From Haliotis rufescens (lineage: Eukaryota): a stretch of 64,000 bases of DNA. The notes below the pieces were generated by a model. That model saw only the letters and a program-made list of their open reading frames with translations, did no database searches and was not told where the DNA came from. The stretch spans positions 19,902,001 through 19,966,000 of the forward strand of contig NW_025963868.1 in assembly GCF_023055435.1 (NCBI RefSeq). The letters run 5' to 3'. Shown here one piece after another: positions 8,446 through 62,702 of the stretch. Position 1 is the first letter of the stretch; the number at the start of each line of letters is the position of its first letter. The position numbers were made by a program, and so were the translations under genes.

Positions 8446-8724
8446 GTAAGGTTCTCTGATCAAATTCTATTTACGATCCAGTCTCTGCAATTTGTGTGCT
8501 CCCCATATGAGGGTAATGAAGCGAAAACATGTAAAAATTTATAAGGTTACCATTTATTAGTGACATACAGCGCCTTTATGAATGTAGGTAAATGTCGGGG
8601 ATACTCGGAGGCTTCTCCTGTCCCTGAGATGATCTGAAAGTGATACCGGAAGCTAATATTAAAAGGGAGATAAATCCGACTTTCGTGTAAATGAGGGAGC
8701 ATATGTTGTGGCAGAAATATATCG

Positions 8725-8769
8725 CACACACGCACACGCACACGCACACGCACACAAACACACACACAC
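8725..8769. repeat. (CA)n/(CACACG)n microsatellite
   Basis: Directly visible. Confidence 0.95.
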
Positions 8770-9080
8770 GAAATCTGAGAAAAATGCATATATGATTGAA
8801 AATAAGAGATGTTATTATATATGTCAATTATGCAGACAAGTATTAAATGATGATAAAGTTTCATACACACCCCTATATAATGCGGATATATTTATACGCA
8901 CGCACACAAAACCATATATATGTAGTCGCATACACATAAGGTTAGTAGTAATAATTAAGTGAAGAATATCAAAACAATGAAATAAGTATGTGACGAAAAA
9001 ATGTGTATTGGTTACAAAAGCCTTCCCAATGTGCCAGAGGGGTTGTGAGTGGTGATAATCATTGTGAGTGGTGATAATCA

Positions 9081-11710
9081 TTACAATATCATGAAACTTG
9101 GACTTGACAAAATGTGCAGATCGCCTTTCTTCAGATCATCAAATAATATGAATGTGTACACTTTTTCTGGTTCGTTGTCATACACAATTATATTGTTATT
9201 GTGCCATTTTAAATAACCTGGTACTTGGGAAATGACCATCCCCATAAACCATTGTAAATTACCCTCCACATCCCATACATGATTCACCCTCTCTCCCACA
9301 AGAATACTCCTAGAGGAACCCTCACCAGTGTTGTTAGAAGCTGCCAGAGATATTAAACATTTTAGATTGTTAGTGAGAGTTGAAAGGTCAAATGTTTATT
9401 TTGTATTGTTTGAAAACTGTAAGAGAAGGGGATTTTCTGGTTTTTGTTTTAGAACATTATTTCGGAAACGAATTTGACACTTCAGTGCCTCCATACGCTC
9501 CTTCTTTGACCGATATTGATTAAAACGGTTGTCCACTTCACTGTGTATTTATGTATCATTATTGATTCTAGGTTGGCATCATGTTTACTTTGCTGTCTTT
9601 ATGTTTACGAGCAACTTCCTCTTGTTTGTGTTTGAGGGCATCCTGCTTTTGTTGCTGAATAATTAATTTGCGAAGTTAAAATTGGGTGAGGGATATTTTT
9701 GTAAGTTTTGAGGCATGGTTGAGGACATTCTGTTGGGAACCATGTGATAGAGTGACTATCCACTCATTACCCCTGTTGAAATTGAGAATTGATGTGTGAT
9801 TCCTGTGTGTAAACGGATGAAGATGGTTTGTGGTGCTTTATATAATGGAAACTGGAACTGACCAAATAGAGATTCCGTGAGTTTGTTGTGTTTTAAAAAC
9901 GAACTTCAATGTGGATGTGATTGTGAAGTTTTGTTCCAATGTATGCCTCCAGGGAGCTGATCTGCCAGAAGCCGCTGTAGAAGTGATGTGATGTATGGTG
10001 TGATATTCTCCAAGATGAGGTGGGTGGTGAGTCATTATTGCATGACGTTGTGAGCGCTTCAAGCACAGAATCAGGCTGATCTGTGAGTTTCAACACGTAT
10101 GGAAGAACCTCGACATCCCCTCTCATAAAACTTGGGAGCCGGGTAATAAGTGTGTCATATAAAATATTCATATCTAGGATTGTCCAGTCCTTGGGACCCG
10201 TGAGGATTCCGGGGTAGAATAGGTCTTCAGCAACCCATGCTTGCCGTAAAAGGCGACTCACGGGATCGGGTGGTCAGGCTCGCTGACTTGGTTGATGCAT
10301 GTCATCGATCCCAATTGCGTGGATCGATGCTCATGATATTAATCATTGGATTGTCTGGTCCAGACTCGACTATTAACAGACCGCCGTCATATCGCTGGAA
10401 TAGTGCTGAGTGCGGCGTTAAACAACAAACCAACCAACCAACCTGTCCTTGGCCTCAAGAATACGCCAAAGTGGATTCGTCAGCAACTTATCCAAGAGAC
10501 CAAGGGCACGACATCCGGATATGCAGAGCTCTGATGCCAATAATGTTGAAATGGATGTCAAAAGACGGTTCCTTGTTTCTGGAGTGAAACATGTATGTAA
10601 AAAATCTTTAAGGTCATCATATACATGGTACACTACAGCTGCATTGTGAAAGAGGATGTTAAAGTCGATTGCCACGAAAGTTGGTAAAATTCGTTTTCCT
10701 ACCTCTAGAAGTAAGAAATATGTTGACAGTTTCAAAGCAACCGCTTTTCTAAACCCCTCCTCTTGAAAAAGCTTTGCACGTCATGCGGACCAAGTCTATG
10801 ACAGATGATGTTTGAAGTTTGGTATTTTGATTCAAAAGTAGAGTGTTGGCGCATTGGTCTGCGATGTTCACAAAAAGATGAAGTCCACAAAAATAGTTGT
10901 CAATGTGGCCCATATCTACTTGTTTCTCCTGGGACAATGAATCCCACTCACTTTCAATGACAGGGAACACGTCTCTTTGTATTCTTGTAATGATACATTG
11001 AAAGCCTTCTCTGTGGCTGCGCTGTCTGACGTTGTATGTTTGATGTTAGCAATGATAGATGACCCTTTACCAGATATGACATTGACGTCATCAATGATTT
11101 CTTTCAGTGTGTCTACGGTTGCCTGCGCGGATTTGTTTGGAATTTCACGCATTCAAAGGATTGTTGGGTTTAGGTGCTGATTGGTAAGCACATACGTCTG
11201 ATATTGTTGTCCATGTTTGGATGTCTCGTCAGCGTACAGGGTGGTATGACTTTCCTTGTTGAAGGTAGCATCCATATGGGCATGGCTCAGGGGGCAATGT
11301 CATTGCTGCTATGTCAGCTACACAGGTTGGTGAGGGAAGGGCGTTTGCTTTTAATCCAACGAGATTAAATACGGTTTCATTACGTTATGGACGTGATCAT
11401 ACCCTACATTTCCCGAGAGAAGAGTCAAAACACACATCTTTGTGTCATTGCTATAGCTCTTACCGTTCTTTAAGGAAATCATGCCTCTGTGGAAAGTGAC
11501 ATCTTCGACATGTTTTCTTCACAAATAGTTTTCTCTATATCTTGTCGCAACTTACAGCAGTTTGTGCATTTCTGCGTAAAGGTCTGTGTTTGTTTACAAC
11601 TTTGTAAAGAACCTTTCACCTTTTCATTTGTTATTTCTTTTAGTTTCAAAAGTCTCTTTCGGTAAATACTTACTTGATTAGATTTACAAATAACTTGTGC
11701 CTTCATTTTC
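9081..11710 (-). mobile_element. Decayed hAT-like DDE transposase gene with a C-terminal Spindlin (Spin/Ssty)-like Tudor domain; element ends not resolved
   Basis: TLYADETSK (~11216-11242), TTSDSAATEKAFN, YFCGLH (CxxH), FNILFHNA, CRALGLLDKLLTNPLWR, LKCQIRFRNNVLKQ, then VGERVNHVW...WFMGMVISQVP...VYD...VYTFILFDDLKKGDLHIL (9081-9299). Confidence 0.75.
10196..10444 (+). mobile_element. SINE family 1, near-complete, inserted in the transposase
   Basis: Full consensus with (AACC)n tail; GTCCTTGG flanks both sides (10187-10194, 10445-10452). Confidence 0.9.
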
Positions 11711-13689
11711 TGGTTCTGGTTTTAGTCAACTCGAGTTGGACACTTTCTGTACATGGTGTAAGTTCATGTATTTGAACTTGAGGAGAAAACATTGTTTATT
11801 TTTGTATGGTACCATGTTCTGGTCTTATCTGCACTAGAGGTTCTGTTTGGGGGATAATTTATTGGGTGTACGTCTATATGCTTCGAGTTGGTAGCGTTCT
11901 CTGTGCTTTTACAATAGGCATGGTCTGGTGCATTGGTGCATAGTGATGCAAGGGAGTGAATTCAGGTAGTGATACATATAAAGTGAAATGTTGTATTTAC
12001 AGTTGCAATTGCGTAGAACAGGATGCTCTTTGATCTCTGGAACTTGGGTATGATGGGATAACGGTATTCAAGAATCTAAAACACCAAGAATAATATACCA
12101 TTAGGTTTCTAACATAGGCAACATTTTAATGCTCCTTATCTCCGTATATACATGTGTATTATAAATATGATTCTGATGTCGTTTTCTATTATGTCCACAA
12201 TACCTTATTGTTTGTTTTCATGTTGTACAAAGCCAGGAAACAGTTAGGAGAATCTGAAATAATACCGACAGATTTTAATAACGTTCAGAAATGTTGCTAC
12301 GGCCAAATGTAAAGAACACTTTCATTTATGGAGTTAAATTAATGTTTAGGAATATATGTGTTATTTTGAAAAGTATATTCCAAAATTCTTTGTAATAAAA
12401 TTAAAAAATGTATCAATATACGTTTGCCTTTGGCAAATGCAGTTTCCGAAGTAGACGTTAAGGGTTGTAGGTGGTACACACGTGTAACGCCTGAATAATA
12501 TGTGGAATTGTTTTATTGTTTATGAGAACATTGTCTCGATTGTTTCGATGTCGGATTGTATTTCAGCAGTTAGGAATAATTACTACAATTTTTATTTTGC
12601 AGTTTGTTGAATTGTTAGCATTGACGAATAACCCTCCTTGAAAATGAAATATATTATATATCAACATGTGTTAGCGTGTGAACACCGCTCTCAACTACAG
12701 GTTGGTCAATACACAATGACAGATGTTGTGGTGGTTGTGGTAATTCAGTCTTTGTCTTTGCGTCAATATTCAGATCACAACTACAGGGCACTGACAGCAA
12801 ATATAGTGCCCCGGTGATAATACAGTAAAACAATATTCGTATAATTTTCAATTACTTTTTTGTTCCCTATAATATCGATATAAGTGTTTTCAATGAACGT
12901 GTCGTTTTTGCATTCCTTAATAATACATGGACTTTTAGGGATATTTTATTTCAGTTTAAAAAAGCATAATACCTTGCAGTGCGTTTATCCTCATACACAT
13001 ATGATGATGCACCTTTGACATATTATCTTGCCCTACATATTATCTTCATTTCTTAACAACGTCTTCATGTACCCTCAATCGCCAAAAAATATATTTCATA
13101 GGTTGTCGAATTATCCGTGTTTTTACGTGCGATTCAAACAATTTACAAATAATGACTGCTCCCCGTTCAAGTGCATGCGTATAACGGCGCTGGAACAGGT
13201 GAGACACAACATACAAAACGGATATTAAGAAGACTTATTTGGTAAGTAATTCAATAACTTGGGGTGTTACATTGTTTTCATTGTATTTACACTCGTTAGA
13301 CAAGGAAAATGGCCTGTAGCTTGGCGGAACAAGTGCAGAATTGCTATAACATATGCTTCTCAGTGGTCTCTCCGACTGAGGTTGTCAGCATTTGCATGTT
13401 CGTCAGAGCACAGTTCGTCTGTCTCGTGCGCCACGTAATAACGTCTGGGTTGAGGTTAAATATCATTTCCATATTCAATCGGATGTACTTTATACGTCAT
13501 CATTTCATTCAGGTGTCATTTGCCAGCGGAATCCCTACTTTGACCCTAACTTCATCTAGACGTGCGGTAGAATGGGCCTGATTCTATCAATCGGCTGGTC
13601 ACGCCATGCCCTGTGCATGGACAACTTGAATTTTAAAACAATGTAATAGCAATGGTTTTGAACATGGCATATTGTGATCTTAAGTACCA

Positions 13690-14029: not shown

Positions 14030-17000
14030 TTACGTCTGTAACCCAATCACCCCCCGTAACTCAATCACCCCGGGCCACCACTCGGCACCGTGCCCGGGGA
14101 ATAATCCCGCGCAAGCATCATCCCGCCTTTGTTAGTCCGTCATTCGCGAACAGCCCTTCCCCAAGTACACACGTGTGTCACTGTATCTAATCGCTTTTGC
14201 TTTGAATACCACCTATTTCAGCACTCGCCGTATCGCATTTATTCCGTTCTACTCCCGAACTTCACCCTCGGGACAATTTTACGCTTGTGGAATACCAACT
14301 CACCACCTCGACCTTCGTGATGCCTCCCAAGAGAAGAGCACCCGTCAACCACAAACTTGTGAGGGGAGCCAAGCAGGCCAGGACAACCAGAAGACAAACC
14401 CCGGGAGTGCACATTATGCAGGAGGCAACAGCTGATGGTGAGTCTGCCAATTACGGAAATATCGAAGGGGGCAACAGAATTAACGTACAATCGGCGCAGC
14501 TTGTAAATGCCGCGCAGGCTGCCAACTCGGCTACCCAGGTAAACGAGGAACTGGAAAAAATACTCCAGTTGCAGGAACATTCAGCGCCCGGCCCGGTTAG
14601 CGCAAACCAACAGGTAAGGCTTGGTTTTAGTTCTCCCGCCATTTCGCCCAACATAGGGAGAATCCCCGATGCTTACAACGAGGTATTCATTTTCATCGTA
14701 GTGTCATAGCGACCGAATTGGGACAAAGACTAATTACCCTGCAGCCATGATGTGTATATGTCTAGAATCTAGAAATGGATTAGTAAACAATCGAAGCGCT
14801 TATGTTAATACCACTTCATTACCCATAAGACACGATGCAATAAATACATCAGCGAACGTTAGATTAACAAATGAATTGCACATGCCAAGCTAGATGTGTG
14901 TATATGAGAAATATATTTGCAGTTTATGTTAAACAATTCATTTAATTGAACATCTGCCAGTTTTTAATACGAAGTTTTGAATAGAAGCTAATGTTTGGAT
15001 TTGCTCTTCTTTACTCAAATGCGAATTTCTGCATAGCACTGTGTGTAAAAAATAACCTTGTTGGTAAAAATACATTTCATTTCGAAGAACTTAGTAGTTT
15101 GTACACACAAAAGTGTAAAGCATGCTCGGTATGATATCCACAGGAACAGGTTTTAGTATGCAATATGTCTATCATACTGATCTGCGTTAAGATCGCTGCA
15201 GACAAGCCTGATGCGAATCTGAATAATTTGACATGCTAATTGCCATTGTTAATCCAGAAGTATTGTACATGGACTGTCTGCCATCCTGAACGAGCTGTGC
15301 AACTTTGACATTGTTTATTTCCATAAATAACCACTCACAGTGGTACATGGACATAAATGCAAGAAATAGATAACGGAGGCATTCACCAAATTGCATCCAT
15401 CGAATATGTTAGCGATCGTACATCTCCATCAGTATGTCCTTACCTGAGAGTTGTGCGTCGGGGTGCATGGCAGTATAGAATGGAAGTCGTTAGTTAGTTA
15501 CTTGAATGGCAGTCCGGGGGTCCTGTCGCTATATACTTGTCCGACATGAAATGACAGGTTTTAGGGTTTGTGATTTAGTTAGTGTGGGTGATTTTAAGAG
15601 CGTTTGTTGAATGGGTGATAATTACTGCTGACGCTATAGATGTAAACATTCATATAATGATGGCAGCAAAGGACAGCCGAGGAGACAATGGCGTTGCCAC
15701 CACGAGACATATGTATGCCTTTTACGAGACGGCTAAGGGTATAATTCACTATGTCTATAAATGTTATGTAATCAGTCCTGTAGCGAATCCTTTTCTGAGC
15801 AACAGACTGTGTCATTGCATGATTTATTGTGGGCACAATGGAATGGGACTGTAGGCACGTGTAGCTCTTAATCCCATATGAAAACACCAACTTTAGATTC
15901 GCGTTGTATCTCTGGTACCACATTCTTTTCTGTAACGCAGATGGCCTAGGTTATGATGATAGTTCGGATAACATTCGTAGAAAATATAGACTGAATGACA
16001 CGACAGAGTGAGAGCCGTTTAACGCCGCTTTTAACAGCATGCCGGTTAGCGAGGCCGACGGTGACGCGGCTTGGCCAGCCAATCACATCGCAGTATACGG
16101 GGATTCCCTTTCCTTCCGTGCGGATGGAATAGACGCGCACGTCAAACAAACGGTGAGGGAAAAAATCTGGCGTGGCGAGTATGTCGACCTCGGCACAATC
16201 CTACCAAACACCGAGGGAGGTCACGAGGACGGTACGATTACCATGGCGTACGACTCCTCAGGTTAGGTAATTTTTAAACCAATAAAGCAGCAACCAAAGC
16301 GCCTGTCCCTGGCAAGCTGGACTTCAGCTTTCCACATTTTCATGTGTATATATGTTAGTAGGCACTCCGAGGTCCGCACAACCCAGGGGTTGCTGTCCTA
16401 CATGGAAACCATAAGAACGGCGGCACTTCGATTCGGGGGGATGCCCGGTCAACCTACGACCAACAATTCCGACACAGAATGTCAAGGGACCCCTTCACGA
16501 CGCTGGGACAACATCGACGGGGAGTTGTGGCTGAAGTACATGGTAACACAGCCGGTACTACAACCACAATCAGGCGGACGGGGCGCAATGACACGCGTAC
16601 AGGGGGACATCGCCAGTCAGGTATGCTGGGATTTCAATAAATTTGGCTGTAGCAGGGTCAACTGTAAGTACACTCACAAATGCGGTAAGTGTGGCAAACA
16701 TTCCCATAGCTCTAGGACCTGCAGATCAGAATCCCAGAGTCCAAGATCAAGGAGGTGACAAGGGAAATCCAAGACATCCTGTCAACAGGTAACATCAAGG
16801 TCACAAAAAGGGCCCTTCAGTCCCTCATAGGCAAGCTTAACTTTATGTGCAGGGCTATACCAATGGCAAGGGCATTCAGCCGCAGGCTAACCGATCTGCT
16901 TAGCAAAGGTAAGCAACCATTTCACCACATTAGGATTACCAGCTGGGTCAAGGAAGACCTACAAATGTGGTTAACATTTCTTACGAGTTATAAAGGCATT

Positions 17001-18215
17001 TCAGTGTTTCAGGACCAACTATGGGTGGACAGCGATTTCCTCCAGCTGTTTTCAGACGCAGCGGGTGGCGCCGGCTTTGGGGCCTACATGCAGGGCAAAT
17101 GGTTTAACGGCGCATGGCCACCCCAGTGGGTGACAGATGGAACTACACGGGACTTGACGCTACCTTGACATGGTGGCATCAACCCTTCGGATACAACCCC
17201 AGCTTCCTGACACCAAGATCATCGTGTCCTCAATGCTGCACAGGCGCTACTGGCACGATGCCAGGGACCCACTAAAGATCGAGGGGATGCGGAAGAATAT
17301 CAACCGTCGACTGGCCAACCGAGTCAAAGAGCTCGGCGGTACAATGGTGCCACATACCCAGATCCTGGCATCAGACAAGACATGGTACGCCTGGGAGGGC
17401 GTCCACCTCAGTGACAAAGGACTCTGTGTGTTTACAGACAATTTATTGCATGCCCTGGCGCTTGTTATCTCCACAGGTTTGCGTTTCCTTTCAGTACATA
17501 GGCAAGCCGGGCAACAATGCTATCTCCGCGTATCGCGTGGCCGTGGGTGTGGGGGTAGCACTCTGGTGCTTTGTGGCGGGGTTCTTGTGGGCTACACTGC
17601 TAGTAACAAATTAACTTGCTTCCAAATTAATACTCGTGCTTAAGGCTACCTGCTTTTCAGCGGGAACCTTTCCGGGGTTACCTGCTTCTCAGTGGGAACC
17701 TTGTCTTTCCCGACTTTTCAGCCGGGGAATCGTAAAATAACATACGTTGGGGCAAACAATTGCCACGTATATGGGCCCGGCGGCGGAAGTCGTCTTGTCA
17801 AGCGGTAGCTGACAGTTGGGTCCGCGGCGTGGGAGCCGCACAATGGTTTTGCTAATGGGGCCGGGCAGTGGGATCTGCTTTGGCCGGCTACCTGGGGCCG
17901 GGCAGCGGTAGTCTGACTTAGGCCAGCAACGTGGAGCTGCTTTTGGCAGCGTGGGAGTTGCCAAGCAATGGTAGCGGTTAAATATGCTACCGTGGGGGCC
18001 GGACAGCGGAAGCAGTCTCAGGCCAGCAGCGCTAGCTGCAATCGCCGTTGGCCACGCGCGTGGCCATGGCAACGGTAGCATTTTGGTATACACAATTAGC
18101 AGCTAAGTAGCCCACTAGTACCTGCACACCCTCGGCCATTTAACCCAATCTCATCTTCTGTTTTTATTTTAGGCACGGGCATCCACGGCTCGGTGGCCCG
18201 TGCCTCTCCTTGGCA
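14030..18215 (+). mobile_element. Internally deleted Ngaro/DIRS-group retrotransposon: gag with CCCH finger, RT C-terminus/RNase H fragment, SGNH-hydrolase fragment
   Basis: KIWRGEYVDLGTIL, WTSAFHIF, RWDNIDGELW, CWDFNKFGCSRVNCKYTHKC; LQSLIGKLNF...EDLQMW...LFSDAAG...GFGAY...WFNGAWP; IIVSSML...EGVHLSDKG; no RT core or tyrosine recombinase. Confidence 0.8.
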
Positions 18216-18224
18216 TATCGCGGG

Positions 18225-19504
18225 ATAATGGCACACAAGTTCAGTAGCGTGTATGGCCACCATGTACGTTGACAACTGCCACACAACGCCTCCGCATGGA
18301 CCTTGTGAACACATGATTGGGAAGACGACGCCATTGTTACTGCAAAATGGTGCCAAGATCTAGCAAATTCTGTGGTTGGTTCTAGAGAGTGCGCAGACTT
18401 CTGCCAAGAGCATCCCAGACGTGTTCGATGGGATTAAGGTCGGGAGACCTTGACGGCCAGTCCATGACGTTGACTCCCGCATTCCGAAGGAAATTCCTTG
18501 TCAAAATTGCTGTGTGGGGTCTGGCATTGTCGTGTTGGAAGATTAAACCGGGTCCATGTGCTGCCATAAAAGGCAGATGTTCTGGTGCCAGTACCTGGTC
18601 GCGGTAAGCAGCAGCGTTGAGGTTGCCACGGATGACAAGAAGCCTGGATCGTGCATTGCCACTGTCAACTTCCTGTACACAACACTGGGCGTAACGTTCA
18701 TGACCGCGCCTCCACACTATCGCCCTACCATCAGCAAATCGAAGATTAAATCGGGATTCATCACTGAAGACGACTTGATTCCAATTCCTCTGAGTACTAC
18801 GTACTTTGTAAGTGTCGCTGTGCCCACAATTGACGTTGACGTCTGTGTAATTGAGTCAGAATCGGCCCGCAGTATGGCCGTCGTGCTTGAAGGTGAGCAG
18901 TTCTCAGACGGTTTCGAACAGTTTGCGCACTCAGTCTACCCCTAAACAGTTCATTTCTGGTTGATGTAGCCGTCAAAAATCGGCTACGGAGGTGACGTAA
19001 AGACAGTCTATCGATCCTCTGCATGTGACGTCACACGTGGTCGACCTGGCCGAGGGCGATCAGCGGTGGTACCCGTTTGCTGTAGACGCGTCTGTAAATC
19101 ACAAACAGTCCGTCGACTACAACCCATCGTCCTTGCGACTTCAGCTACGGACGTTCCCGTCTTCAACATGCCGATGGCACGTTCACGTTGCACATTTGGA
19201 AGGCGTGGCATGACAAATGGCCTTAAAGACTTTTGTTTTCTTGTGTTTTTCTTTTTTTGTTAATGACTGCTATGGCTGAAAACATGTGCGGTATTATGGC
19301 CACGTGACCAGTTGCACGTGAAAAAACACTTTTGCCACTATAGTGCTGTGCACATGATTTTGATCGATTCACCTGCACAGAAACGGGTGTTATCTGAAGA
19401 CAATACGTGGCCATTACTGTTTAAATACACAATAAGGGCCCACAATGATAACTGCTCAAAATGTTAAAATTTTAGGATTGTGAAGTTTTTAATTTGGTTC
19501 AGTA
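18225..19504 (-). mobile_element. Tc1-like transposon 1 (transposase 19211-18241, disrupted; 3' TIR missing)
   Basis: MPRL...RPGRPRVT; FQHDNARPH; WPSRSPDLNPIEHVW; GGHTRY*; 5' end TACTGAACC abuts (TA)n. Confidence 0.92.
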
Positions 19505-19554
19505 TATATATATATATATATAGATATATATATCTATATATATATATATATATA
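19503..19554. repeat. (TA)n microsatellite
   Basis: Directly visible. Confidence 0.95.
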
Positions 19555-41260: not shown

Positions 41261-42766
41261 TACTCTTCAAAAAAAGAAACGTGACATAGATGTAAAACCC
41301 CTTTTTGCCAAATATCTAAAATAATTACATTAAATGAGAACCAAATAAGTCAAACAGAAAGATGATGTGTCTATAATTCGCGAAAACACATGCAAAGCAC
41401 ATAAATGTAGCGTTTGGGGATCAATTTTACAGCTTCACCCAAAAGCAACCGCCTGTAAAAAACGTGCAGCACAGGATCATGCATTTAGGCATGCAGGCAC
41501 CCCTGCTGAATGGGTATTAAAATCCACATAAACGGCTGTTCATACAGTCCTTATAACGGCAGTAGAGGCGGTGACAGAATGCCAAGACTGAATGCAGCTC
41601 AACGGAACAACGCAATTGGGAGATTACAAGCTGGAGCAACTCAGCAAGAAGTGGCCAGGCACTTTGGCGTATTCAGACAGACAATCTCTGCACTGTGGAC
41701 CCAATACAACAACACCAACAGAGTTGACGACAGACCAAGGTCAGGAAGACCAAGGGTGACAACCCAAGCACAAGATCGATACATCCGGCTGCGACACCTC
41801 CGAGACCGCACTACCACAGCTACGTCTACAACCACACAGGTCCCTGGGGTACGCAGAATATCAGATCAAACGGTACGCAACAGACTGAGGGAGGCTGGAC
41901 TTTTTGCACGAAGACCTGTTCGACGTCATGTATTGACCCCACGTCATCTGGCGGACCGTCTCCTTTGGTGCCAACAGAGGGTTAGATGGGCACGTGCAAG
42001 GTGGAGAAATGTACTGTTTACTGACGTTTCCTACTCACACGTGCTGATGGGCGCGCACGTGTCTACAGACGTCGGGGTGAACGTTACGCCCCCAACTGTG
42101 TGCAGCAGGTTGTCCCATTTGGCGGCGGGAGTGTCATGGTATGGGCCGGAATTCATCACGGTGGTAGGACGCCTCTCGTGCATGTGGCAGGTGCATTAAC
42201 AGGTGTGCGTTACAGAGACTTGATCCTACAGCCTTACGTTCTTCCTTACGTTCAAGGCGGACAGTTCCAGCAGGACAACGCTCGACCGCATATTGCACGT
42301 GTTTGTCAGGACTTCTTACAGCACAACAACATCCAGACATTACCTTGGCCAGCCCTGTCACCAGATTTGTCCCCGATTGAGCATCTGTGGGACGAGTTGG
42401 ATCGACGCGTTCGCAGAAGGAATCCACCGCCCAAAACACTTCCGGCGCTTCTTGATGCACTTCAGCATGAATGGCAGCACATCCAACAGCGTGTTAATGA
42501 CAACTTGATTGCATCTATGGGTCGTCGGTGTCAAGAGGTGATTGATGCACGTGGTGGGCACAACCAATACTGACATTATCTGTACCCCTGTGCCATTAAC
42601 TGTATCGTGTACGTGTGTCTGTCTAGGTGACACGATTAATGTTTTGAACATTGTGTACATTGATCTTCAAACAGTGTTTCAATTATGGTTTATGTGTCCT
42701 ATTTCGAAACAATCGCATTATAATACATTTTGAAAGTCAGTGTCAAGTTTCTTTTTTTGAAGAGTA
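41261..42766 (+). mobile_element. Full-length Tc1 (DD34E) transposon 3 (transposase 41579-42573, one frameshift)
   Basis: 26-bp TIRs TACTCTTCAAAAAAAGAAAC(G/T)TGACA, TA TSD; VLFTD; QQDNARPH...SPIE with 34 residues between D and E. Confidence 0.96.
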
Positions 42767-57582: not shown

Positions 57583-57758
57583 GTAAGTGGTAGTTGATGT
57601 CGTCTGAACACGCAAATCACCCAAGTATATCCCAAAGTTGTCCACAGCGACTGACATCCAATGCAAAATATTGGTATTGGATTATACGATGTCGCTGGTG
57701 CAGGTTCTAGCAACATGTTGACATGCATTTTCGTGGTGAAACATCACGTTCGACCACT

Positions 57759-59404
57759 ATGATAAGGTATTTCGATCCCTGCCAGGTCCCCCGCACGATG
57801 TTAAGGTATTTCGATCCTTGCCAGGTCCCCCGCACGATGTTAAGGTATTTCCATCCCTGCCAGGTCCCCTGCACGATGTTAAGGTATTTCCATCCCTGTC
57901 AGGCCCCCCGCATTATGTAAAGGTATTTCCATCCCTGTCAGGTCCCCCGCACGATGTTAAGGTATTTCCATCCCTGTCAGGTCCCCCGCACGATGTTAAG
58001 GTATTTCCATCCCTGTGAGGCCCCCCGCACGATGTTAAGGTATTTCGATCCCTGTGAGGCCCCCCGCACGATGTTAAGGTATTTCCATCCCTGTGAGGCC
58101 CCCCGCACGATGTTAAGGTATTTCGATCCCTGCGAGGCCCCCCGCACGATGTTAAGGTATTTCGATCCCTGTCAGGTCCCTCGCACGATGTTAAGGTATT
58201 TCGATCCCTGTGAGGCCCCCCGCACGATGTTAAGGTGTTTCGATCCCTGTGAGGCCCCCCGCACGATGTTAAGGTATTTCGATCCCTGTCAGGTCCCCCG
58301 CACGATGTTAAGGTATTTCGATCCCTGTGAGGCCCCCCGCACGATGTTAAGGTATTTCGATCCCTGTCAGGTCCCCCGCATTATGTTAAGGTATTTCGAT
58401 CCCTGTCAGGTCTGTGGTACGATGTTAAGGTATTTTGACCTCTGTCAGTTCTGTAGCAGGATGTTAAGGTATTTCGGCCTCAGTCAGGTCTGTGGTACGA
58501 TGGTAAGGTATTTCGGCCTCTGTCAGGTCTGTGGCACAATGTTAAGGTATTTCGACCTCTGTCAGGTCTGTGGCACGATGTTAAGGTATTTCGATCCCTG
58601 TCAGGTCTGTGGCACAATGTTAAGGTATTTCGACCTCTGTCAGGTCTGTGGCACAATGTTAAGGTAGTTTGACCACTGTCAGGTCTGTAGCACGATGTTA
58701 AGGTATTTGGGCCTCAGTCAGGGCTGTGGTACGATGTTAAGGTATTTGGGCCTCGGTCAGGTCTGTGGCACATTGTTAAGATATTTCGACCTGTGTCAGG
58801 TCTGTAGCATGATGTTAATGTATTTCGGCCTCTGTCAGGCCTGTGGTACGATGTTAAGGTATTTCGACCTCTGTCAGGTCTGTGGCACAATGTTAAGGTA
58901 TTTCGACCTCTGTCAGGTCTGTGGCATAATGTTAAGGTATTTCGACCTCTGTCAGGTCTGTGGCACAATGTTAAGGTATTTCGACCTCTGTCAGGTCTGT
59001 TGCACAATGTTAAGGAATTTCGACCTCTGTCAGGTCTGTAGCACAATGTTAAGGTATTTCGACCTCTGTCTTGTCTGTAGCACAATGTTAAGGTATTTCG
59101 ACCTCTGTCAGGTCTGTGGCACAATGTTAAGGTATTTCGACCTCTGTCAGGTCTGTAGCACAATGTTAAGGTATTTCGACCTCTGTCAGGTCTGTGGCAC
59201 AATGTTAAGGTATTTCGACCTCTGTCAGGTCTGTGGCACAATGTTAAGGTATTTCGACCTCTGTCAGGTCTGTAGCACAATGTTAAGGTATTTCGACCTC
59301 TGTCAGGTCTGTAGCACAATGTTAAGGTATTTCGACATCTGTCAGGTCTGTGGCACAATGTTAAGGCAGTTTGACCACTGTCAGGTCTGTGGCACAATGT
59401 TTAA
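57759..59404. repeat. 39-bp minisatellite, ~42 copies, two variant domains
   Basis: atgttaaggtatttcga(tccc/cctc)tgtcaggtc(ccccgcacg/tgtggcaca). Confidence 0.97.
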
Positions 59405-59619
59405 GGGATGTGCACATCTATAGTTTCCTCTTGCCCTCTCACGTGACGCTGTAATCCATGTACAACATGCAACAAGTTCACAGTAAAGTAAGGGCCGACA
59501 TTCAGACAGAAATGATATTCAGGTCCATCGAAGAAGCTGACGTGCCATCAAAGACCTTGACTGAGATTGAACATTCTAACAGGACGACGAGCTCTCATGC
59601 TGTGGTGTTGTGATTGGTT

Positions 59620-62185
59620 CTGAACTGTCTGGTGTGGATACTGAACAGTCTGGTGTGGATACTGAACTGACTGGGGTGGATACTGAACAGTCTGGAATGG
59701 ATACTGAACAGTCTGGAATGGATACTGAACTGTCTGGAGTGGGCACTGAACTGTCTGGATTGGATATTGAACTGACTGGAGTGGATACTGAACTGTCTGG
59801 AGTGGATACTGAACAGTCTGGGGTGGATACTGAACAGTCTGGAGTGGATACTGAAATGACCGAAGTGGATACTGAACAGTCTGGAGTGGATACTGAACTG
59901 ACTGGAGTGGATACTGAACTGTCTGGATCGGGTACTGAACAGTCTGGAGCGGATACTGAACTGTCTGGAGTGGATACTGAACTGTCTGGAGTGGATACTG
60001 AACAGTCTGGAGTGGGCACTGAACTGTCTGGGGTGGATACTGAACTGTCTGGAGTGGACACTGAACTGTCTGGAATGGATACTGAGCTGTCTGGAATGGA
60101 TACTGAACTGTCTAGAACGGATGCTGAACTGACTGGAGTGGATACTGAACTGTCTGGAGTGGATACTGAACAGTCTGGAGTGGATACTAAACAGCCTGGA
60201 ATGGATACTGAACTGACTGGAGTGGGCACTGAACTGTCTGCAGCGGATACTGAACAGTCTGGAGTGGATACTGAACTAACTGGAGAGGATACTGAACTGT
60301 CTGGAGCGGATACTGAACAGCCTGGAGCGGATACTTAACACAATCTGGAGCGGATACTGAACAGTCTGAAGCGGATACTGAACTGTCTACAACGGATGCT
60401 GAACTGACTGGAGTGGATACTGAACTGTCTGGAGTGGATACTGAACAGTCTGGAGTGGATACTAAACAGTCTGGAATGGATACTGAACTGACTGGAGTGG
60501 GCACTGAACTGTCTGCAGCGGATACTGAACAGTCTGGAGTGGATACTGAACTAACTGGAGAGGACTGAACTGTCTGGACCGGATACTGAACAGTCTGGAG
60601 CGGATACTGAACACAATCTGGAACGGATACTGAACAGTCTGGAGCGGATACTGAACTGTCTAGGGCTGATACTGAACAGTCTGGAATGGATGCTGAACTG
60701 ACTGTAGTAGGTACTTAACAGTCTGGAATGGATACTGAACAGTCTGGAGTGGATACTGAACTGTATGGAGTGGATACTGAACCGTCTGGAACGGATACTG
60801 AACTGTCTGGAATGGATACTGAACAGTCTGGAGTGGATACTGAACTGTCTGGAGTGGATACTGAACTCTCTGGAGTGGATACTGAGCTGTCTGGAGTGGA
60901 TACTAAAGAGTCTGCAGTGGATACTGAACTGTCTGGGATGGATACTGAACTGTCTGGTGTGGACACTGAACTGTCTGGAGTGGATACTGAACAGTCTGGT
61001 ATGAATACTGAACTGTCTGGAGTGGATACTGAGCTGTCTGGACTGGACACTGAACTGTCTGGAGTGGGTATTGAACTGTCTGGAGTGGATACTGAGCTGT
61101 CTGGAGGGGATATTGAGCTGTCTGGGGTGGATGCTGAACAATCTGGAGCGGATACTGAGCTGTCTGGAGTGGATACTGAGCTGTTTGGAATGGATGCTGA
61201 ACAGTCTGGAGTGGATGCTGAACTGACTGGAGTGGATACTGAACTGTCTGGAATGGATACTGAGTTGTCTGGGGTGGATACTGGACAGTCTGGAGTGGAT
61301 CCTGAACTGTCTGGAGTGGATTCTGAACTGTCTGGTGTGGATACTGAACAGACTGGAATGGATACTGAACTGTCTGGAGGGGAAACTGAGTTGTCTGGGG
61401 TGGATGCTGAACAGTCTGGAGTGGAAACTGAACTGTCTGGAGCGGATACTTAACTGTCTAGAATGAATACTGAACTGTCTGGAGTGGATACTGAGCTGTC
61501 TGGACTGGACACTGAACTGTCTGGAGCGGATAATGAGCTGTCTGGAGTGGATACTGAACTATCTGGAGTGGATACTGTACTGTCTTGAGTGGACACTGAA
61601 CTGTCTGGAGCGGATACAGAACTGACTGGGCTGGACACTGAACTGTCTGGAGGGGATACTGAGCTGTCTGGGGTGGATGCTGAACTGTCTGGAGTGGATA
61701 CTGAGCTGTCTGGAGTGGATACTGAGCTGTCAGGAGTGGATGCTGAACAGTCTGGAATGGATGCTGAACTGACTGGAGTTGATACTGAACTGTCTGGAAT
61801 GGATACTGAACTGTCTGGTGTGGATACTGAACATACTAGAATGGATACTGAACTGTCTGGAGTGGATACTGAACTGTCTGGAGCGGATACTGAACTGTCT
61901 GGAATGAATACTGAACTGTCTGGGGTGGATACTGAACTGTCTGGAGTGGATACTGAACTGTCTGGAGTGGATTCTGAACTGTCTGGTGTGGATACTGAAC
62001 AGACTAGAATGGATACTGAACTGTCTGGAGTGGATACTGAACTGTCTGGAGCGGATACTGAACTGTCTGGAATGAACACTGAACAGTCTGGAGTGGATAC
62101 TGAACTGTCTGGAGTGGATATTGAACTGTCTGAAGCGGATACTCAACAGTCTGGAGTGGATACTGAACTGTCTGGCGAGGACACT
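59620..62185. repeat. 21-bp minisatellite, ~120 copies
   Basis: gtggatactgaactgtctgga variants; frameshifts and stops in all frames. Confidence 0.97.
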
Positions 62186-62702
62186 GCCTGTTGGAACCTG
62201 TTACGAAGGTTTGCAGTAAAGATATAACATGTAACATGTTACGTCGGAGTAGTACTTCACCATTTAAGCTTAAAGTTATATAATTACTTTTTCGTTGTCA
62301 GTTCCTACCTTGCCACCACTCGAGTGTAGGCTTTCTGTAAAGGGTTCTACAATGTTGAAGTGTGCAATAAAAAGTGACTGTTTTGCTAGGTACATTTCAT
62401 CAGGATGCTGTACAGCTGATTTGGGCCAAAGGGAATTCCATTGTGAAGTAATTAGGTCAGTTGTTACGTTAAATCTCCGAGCCTTTTAGTATGATTCGAT
62501 GACTATCTCTAATCTATCGTTTGCTTCTCCGGTAACGTTAAGCTTGCAGTGAGCATGACTCAAACCGGGAATAGTTGTGCTGGATTAAAACATAGTTTAG
62601 ACAACGTGTGGGTAAGTGTAGTATCATTTTAAAAAACGTATTACCACATTACTCCCTATTTTGACTTGTGTTATATCTTTCCGTGTCATTTCATTATTAC
62701 AT

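Follow-up and report, generated by a model that had tools for sequence, protein, structure and literature searches.

A divergent hAT-type transposase that ends in a Spindlin-type repeat, decayed in Haliotis rufescens and intact in other animals

A decayed DNA transposon of Haliotis rufescens encodes a hAT-type transposase that runs into a single Spin/Ssty (Spindlin Tudor-like) repeat, and intact relatives of this transposase (i.e., single open reading frames of about 1000 amino acids) end in the same domain. The element lies on the minus strand of the 64,000-nucleotide stretch analyzed here (contig NW_025963868.1, positions 19,902,001 to 19,966,000; "the window"). We propose that the repeat would bind methylated H3 tails, likely H3K4me3, and would tether the transposase or transpososome near marked nucleosomes, biasing insertion; for this mechanism as a whole, in which a transposase reads methylated H3 and steers its own insertion, we estimate a probability of about 0.55. 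If a DNA transposase carries its own histone-mark reader in nature, this would reveal how cut-and-paste elements can choose chromatin, and a reader of about 65 amino acids would be a compact targeting module for gene-delivery vectors. A search of paper listings and abstracts found no description of a fusion between a hAT transposase and a Spin/Ssty domain, and a term search of the accessible text of a broad DDE survey (10.1101/2021.09.26.461848) returned none of "spin," "tudor," and "hATw."

BLASTN comparison with copies on eight contigs of the genome (C556, C608, C423, C334, C589, C35, C157, and C2), which have parts of the element in common, placed the window copy at approximately 8485 to 13537. 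The original prediction had located the feature at 9081 to 11710, where it is indeed found, but the element reaches well beyond that span. At its 5' end, all five matches to other copies stop at the same base of the terminal inverted repeat (TIR) TAGGGATTCCG (13527 to 13537, minus strand, read inward), beyond which the flanks are unrelated. The same repeat is present at both ends of the C589 and C556 copies, with one mismatch at one end of each. It begins with TAGGG, in agreement with the hAT TIR consensus (T/C)A(A/G)NG. Homology on the left starts at about 8485, the 3' TIR having been lost from the window copy. A rebuild of the family was expected to yield one open reading frame, TIRs, and a target site duplication (TSD); the first two were recovered (the frame in the intact relatives), but no clean TSD emerged from flank comparison of the C589 and C556 copies. 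The flanks of the C589 copy, which retains both ends, match at 2 of 8, 5 of 7, 4 of 6, and 4 of 5 positions for lengths of 8, 7, 6, and 5 bp, respectively, and the C556 flanks mismatch. The TIR pattern had 80 matches genome-wide (7 in the control), none of the 20 inspected being an element end; many resemble pieces of the SINE-like repeat that interrupts the gene of the window copy (see below). No bracketing TIR pair was recognized in 44 metagenome loci, and the element ends sought for two other subfamilies were not pinned down.

The window copy is inactive. Its identity to three other copies is 86 to 89% and to a fourth 73 to 77%, indicating that the subfamily is old. All copies examined in this genome are decayed, and local insertion preference therefore cannot be read from them. 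Further decayed subfamilies of the Spin-tailed transposase occur in the same genome (L016, L017, L018, L096, and L097, on contigs C581, C68, C445, and C556). The L017 copy contains an internal inversion, and the transposase copy on C581 harbors a young 685-bp repeat (L016, 4512 to 5194) with genome-wide copies that are up to 99% identical.

The transposase coding region of the window copy (9084 to 11829, minus strand) is broken by frameshifts, stop codons, and one SINE-like insertion. A profile built from 95 relatives is co-linear with the window over several frames (profile positions 197 to 937 on 11536 to 9108), and a weak further match (positions 158 to 231) extends to 11829, such that positions 158 to 937 occur in order; tblastn alignments also cover the region. 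Along the minus strand, the coding region contains the first catalytic Asp (11228 to 11230, in ADETSK; D in 75 of 76 nongap rows of the 95), the second catalytic Asp (11024 to 11026, in TTSDSA; 84/84), the CxxH motif CGLH (10878 to 10889; C in 90/90 and H in 91/91), an RGNR motif (about 10676 to 10665), the catalytic Glu (9873 to 9875, in HNKLTE; 93/93), a helical linker, and the terminal Spin domain. These D, D, C, H, R, and E residues are near invariant in the family alignment; the R of the RW motif is kept in 92 of 93 relatives, with the W replaced by F in 77 of 93 rows. The co-linearity of the DETSK, SD, and CxxH motifs with the VGERVNHVW domain, noticed from the sequence of the window, was thus borne out by both the minus-strand positions and the profile order. 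The SINE-like insertion (10195 to 10441), which splits the gene and has GTCCTTGG on both sides, corresponds to a gap in alignments to the C556 and C423 copies, is missing from the other copies of the element, and has many dispersed matches; we label it a SINE by presumption. A TAA stop codon (9396 to 9398, minus strand) separates the helical linker from the Spin domain. It is private to the window copy, being missing from all four other genomic copies aligned, and the core-to-Spin junction is common to these four.

The Spin repeat itself (9111 to 9305, minus strand; VGERVNHVW...DDLKKGDLHIL, 9305 to 9108) matches 17 Spindlin sequences in PDB, human Spindlins among them (E values of 1.9e-10 to 6.6e-8), with no other match at an E value of ≤10. 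Its alignments to Spindlin confirm the Spin/Ssty similarity that had been predicted. The Pfam check suggested earlier had a divided outcome: the window copy scores 18.5 bits against Spin-Ssty (PF02513), below the cutoff of 25, but of the first 11 relatives recovered, 8 attain or exceed the cutoff, and the 9 complete ones score 24.8 to 47.9 bits. A 9-bp duplication (NNI) within a strand of the domain is present in the window copy alone. With SPIN1 numbering checked on the full-length chain 7e9m, the window copy keeps four cage aromatics, i.e., W (9273 to 9275), F (9246 to 9248; W151 equivalent), Y (9180 to 9182), and Y (9156 to 9158), together with the acids equivalent to D184 (9135 to 9137) and D189 (9120 to 9122), all on the minus strand. 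The cage had been read as W/W/Y/Y; all four residues are aromatic, but the HMMER register pairs W151 with F50 and not with the W49 just before it, giving W/F/Y/Y. Three tandem repeats without a transposase characterize the Spindlin gene family, and the window has one repeat behind a DDE core.

A profile search detected 1507 clusters (50% identity) at an E value of ≤1e-30, and the best 150 of these were examined. Twenty of the proteins were looked up; those that carry an organism name are from bivalves, a snail, a sea urchin, amphioxus, and gar (Pinctada, Mytilus, Pecten, Mya, Ruditapes, Littorina, Strongylocentrotus, Branchiostoma, and Lepisosteus) and are labeled "uncharacterized" or "SPIN3-like" in the databases. 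Among 87 near-full-length relatives (proteins spanning the core, leaving out redundant cluster members and fragments), 63 carry the Spin domain, 5 carry another module, and 19 carry none. The other module (P0103, P0106, P0110, P0133, and P0139) is a small C-terminal domain (YVAVAFD..W..G...F.WP..DD) without a Pfam name, which suggests that the C-terminal module is swappable. Near-identical multicopy relatives were also observed, including 14 members in the cluster of P0007 and two amphioxus records on separate contigs. Sixteen of the 63 domain carriers are truncated, and in 15 of these the protein ends at or close to SQV. In 4 of the 44 metagenome loci, the Spin domain is split at SQ|VP by a GT-AG intron and resumes downstream of it, which accounts for the proteins ending at SQV. 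These introns are in phase 0 (L104, 2613 to 3119; L109, 1518 to 1913; L124, 1823 to 1920; and L135, 1745 to 2045). Their position is consistent with the Spin domain belonging to a spliced transposase mRNA. Most of the proteins cut at SQ|VP sit in one 19-member clade, suggesting a single intron gain. Retention of the intron would remove the reader half. Two tandem Spin repeats were found in P0182 (sea urchin), P0189 (gar), P0074, and P0123 and also in L102 and L136, and these pairs show that the repeat duplicates while on the transposase. The paired repeats are divergent, unlike the type closest to Spindlin.

The assignment of the enzyme to hAT-like transposases, part of the original prediction, held up in structural comparisons. 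The AlphaFold model of the relative P0015 (pLDDT, 87.3) has a predicted Hermes-like RNase H fold with a helical insertion; Hermes is its best match (Z = 16.6; rmsd, 3.8; 337 residues), followed by a match with a Z of 10.2, with the P-element at 9.5, and the top seven Foldseek rows are all Hermes. In addition to the predicted DDE core with its insertion, the family shares with Hermes and other hATs (PDB 8edg, 4d1q, 6dww, and 2bw3) the D, D, CxxH, R, and E motifs in hAT order and a short TIR. The CxxH and RW motifs of the insertion domain are hAT features, and the R of the latter is retained. The differences are also substantial: identity to Hermes is just 11 to 13%; for 77 of 93 rows, the residue after the conserved R is F, whereas Hermes has W there; no Pfam match to the N-terminal BED finger or the hAT dimerization domain, which most but not all hATs have, was obtained in scans of 14, 11, and 11 proteins; the family has a long N-terminal coiled coil and a C-terminal helix plus Spin repeat; and the 8-bp TSD usual for hATs was not seen in the copies examined. 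Fold, motifs, and TIR favor placing the element among the hATs, as a divergent lineage. It resembles in this respect hATw, hAT5, hAT6, and hAT7 (Repbase/RepeatMasker), which have non-8-bp TSDs, as divergent animal hAT lineages. The hATw TSD is 7 bp, the length at which our best flank match (5 of 7, in one copy) occurs, and the element may belong to hATw. The accessible text of PMC12730594 gives 5- and 6-bp TSDs for hAT5 and hAT6 and describes hAT7 as fungal.

The tail of the P0015 model has a predicted Spindlin-like fold (Spindlin-4: Z = 9.4; rmsd, 2.1; 65 residues). The closest counterpart is repeat 2 of Spindlin-1 to -4 (PDB 4mzg, 4uy4, and 5a1h), the repeat with which Spindlins read H3K4me3, with an rmsd of 1.1 to 2.1 Å over 63 to 65 residues, about 40% identity, and retention of the cage positions and of D184/D189; the family profile likewise prefers repeat 2 of Spindlin-3 (30.5, 47.3, and 17.5 bits for repeats 1, 2, and 3). 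The transposase repeat differs from Spindlin in being fused to a transposase, in occurring once (twice in some members) rather than three times, in having mostly Tyr/Phe at W151, and in having invertebrate hosts as well. The pocket for R8me2a needs Spindlin repeats 1 and 3, and the transposase repeat would therefore lack it. In the 65 near-complete rows of the 87 aligned, aromatic residues occupy the positions of F141 (51 rows), W151 (57, mostly Tyr), Y170 (64), and Y177 (57), and D/E occupies those of D184 (62) and D189 (46); E142 is not kept. In the clade closest to Spindlin (the SQVP clade), the enzymes of which are only 34 to 41% identical, 19 of 23 domains combine all four aromatics with D/E184; the figures for the other clades are 4/8, 0/8, 4/7, and 3/3, the 0/8 clade often having Cys at F141. 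The window-copy domain scores 85 bits against the SQVP-clade profile; it is likened to this clade by that score, the tree having taken in other proteins. Since the cage and D/E184 are kept in 19 of 23 domains, we infer methyl-lysine reading for the clade that the window-copy domain resembles, and binding of methyl-lysine by the repeat is, on these residues, probable. That the mark is H3K4me3 is a somewhat favored reading of the same alignments, and for target-site bias as the purpose of the repeat we consider the odds to be about even. A prediction of the complex between the Spin domain and an unmethylated H3 tail, run without an alignment, scored 0.02, which counts neither for nor against binding. 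In the P0015 model, the repeat comes after a long helix (residues 789 to 853) and a small helical module, a placement that could bring a nucleosome next to the target DNA within its reach. Chromovirus integrases carry chromodomains and offer a parallel in that a chromatin-reader barrel is C-terminal on a DDE enzyme; they differ in combining a chromodomain with the integrase of an LTR retrotransposon, in contrast to a Spindlin-type Tudor repeat on a cut-and-paste transposase.

The most serious alternative, which we nevertheless regard as unlikely, is that methyl-mark reading by the repeat concerns a different mark or serves another purpose, i.e., to find heterochromatin (H3K9me3 and H4K20me3), to locate the ends of the element itself within chromatin, or to rival host readers that silence it. 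Spindlin structures with H3K9me3 and H4K20me3 peptides exist (according to PDB titles), so the transposase repeat may read a mark other than H3K4me3, and the cage differs between clades; in addition, SPIN1 is described in the accessible text of a preprint (bioRxiv 10.64898/2026.08.20.746118) as binding H3K4me3 plus H3K9me3 on young transposons and silencing them. The best match, however, is to repeat 2, and D184 and D189, which anchor the H3 N terminus in K4 reading, are kept. Less probable still is a generic SH3/Tudor barrel that helps to assemble the transposase, touches DNA, or binds a partner other than histones and reads no histone. Retroviral integrases have such a C-terminal barrel, Spindlin repeat 3 binds protein partners, and both the replacement of the tail in 5 of 87 relatives and the clade lacking the full cage would fit this explanation. 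The joint retention of four aromatics and D184 in the SQVP clade, despite the low identity of its enzymes, argues against it, as do the acidic H3-contact positions of the domain. Finally, that the fusion is accidental (insertion of a separate Spindlin fragment after a dead transposase) or that the proteins are domesticated host genes is very improbable: one stop codon does separate core and domain in the window copy, and domestication is possible for some relatives (gar P0189, for example), but that stop is private, and intact single reading frames in many taxa, TIRs with dispersed decayed copies, the junction common to the other copies, and the Spin matches of the genome, which come after this transposase in seven of seven cases, refute accidental fusion for this family. 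The domain is neither a separate reading frame nor a private insertion, either of which, like the lack of a profile match, would have counted against the original prediction. Steering of insertion by a methylated-H3 reader remains our preferred reading.

We also considered the origin of Spindlin, on which the element had been expected to bear. Profiles built from 8 proteins of each clade were scored on Spindlin PDB chains. The SQVP-clade profile scored 66.0 bits on repeat 2 of Spindlin-3; the profile of a second clade scored 21.3 on repeat 2 of Spindlin-4, and that of a third scored 30.8 on repeat 1 of Spindlin-1 (a basic extension helps) and 14.8 on repeat 2. Held-out members of the SQVP clade (n = 15) scored 49.5 to 102.7 bits against its profile, 18 domains of three divergent clades scored 4.3 to 36.8, and a mixed clade of 8 scored 7.6 to 95.5. 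Spindlin repeat 2, at 66 bits, thus scores inside the span covered by a single transposon clade. All seven Pfam Spin matches in the genome (20 candidates scored) adjoin this transposase, and no multirepeat host Spindlin gene was seen there, although a spliced gene could escape the search. Together, the score range and the location of these matches give a hint that Spindlin came from a transposon. The support for such a link is circumstantial and would fit either direction of transfer: the mixed clade, too, has SQVP-type domains, so this type may be no more than an ancestral form that evolves slowly, and capture of a Spin repeat by the transposase from an old host gene would be a viable alternative. 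The core tree (FastTree, midpoint rooted, with weak deepest nodes) was built from transposases alone, without Spindlins. Spindlins are described in the accessible text of PMC3967050 as conserved in vertebrates, and the Spin repeat sits on transposases of molluscs, sea urchin, and amphioxus. Tentatively, and at somewhat less than even odds, an ancient animal hAT lineage might pick its targets by H3K4me3 via a Spindlin repeat, and the vertebrate Spindlins, now transposon silencers, might be its captured and triplicated tail. If the transposon origin is true, Spindlin would join the list of domesticated transposon genes, with SPIN1 itself acting against young transposons.

Host small RNA matches the transposase. 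A 30-nt RNA with a 5' U, antisense to the coding region (10784 to 10813, plus strand), is represented by reads that begin at 10784, with adapter sequence following 10813 (586 in run X22 and 31 in run X23, with 4 reads in that bin in the third run; three runs of one study with the same species label). An identical 30-mer is present in the C423 copy, so the reads are not tied to one source copy. The RNA is piRNA-like, and the window copy appears to be recognized by such a host small RNA.

The window contains other repeats. Fragments of gag-like, RT/RNase H, and hydrolase-like frames lie at 14206 to 17643 and resemble what we take to be a DIRS-type retroelement; two transposase remnants (18228 to 19511 and 41510 to 42573) are presumably Tc1/mariner-like. 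Long tandem arrays (a 39-bp unit ×42 and a 21-bp unit ×122) occupy 57755 to 62186. Elsewhere in the loci examined, L169 and L170 (contigs C594 and C112) contain big tandem clusters of BTB-like genes at a spacing of about 10 kb.
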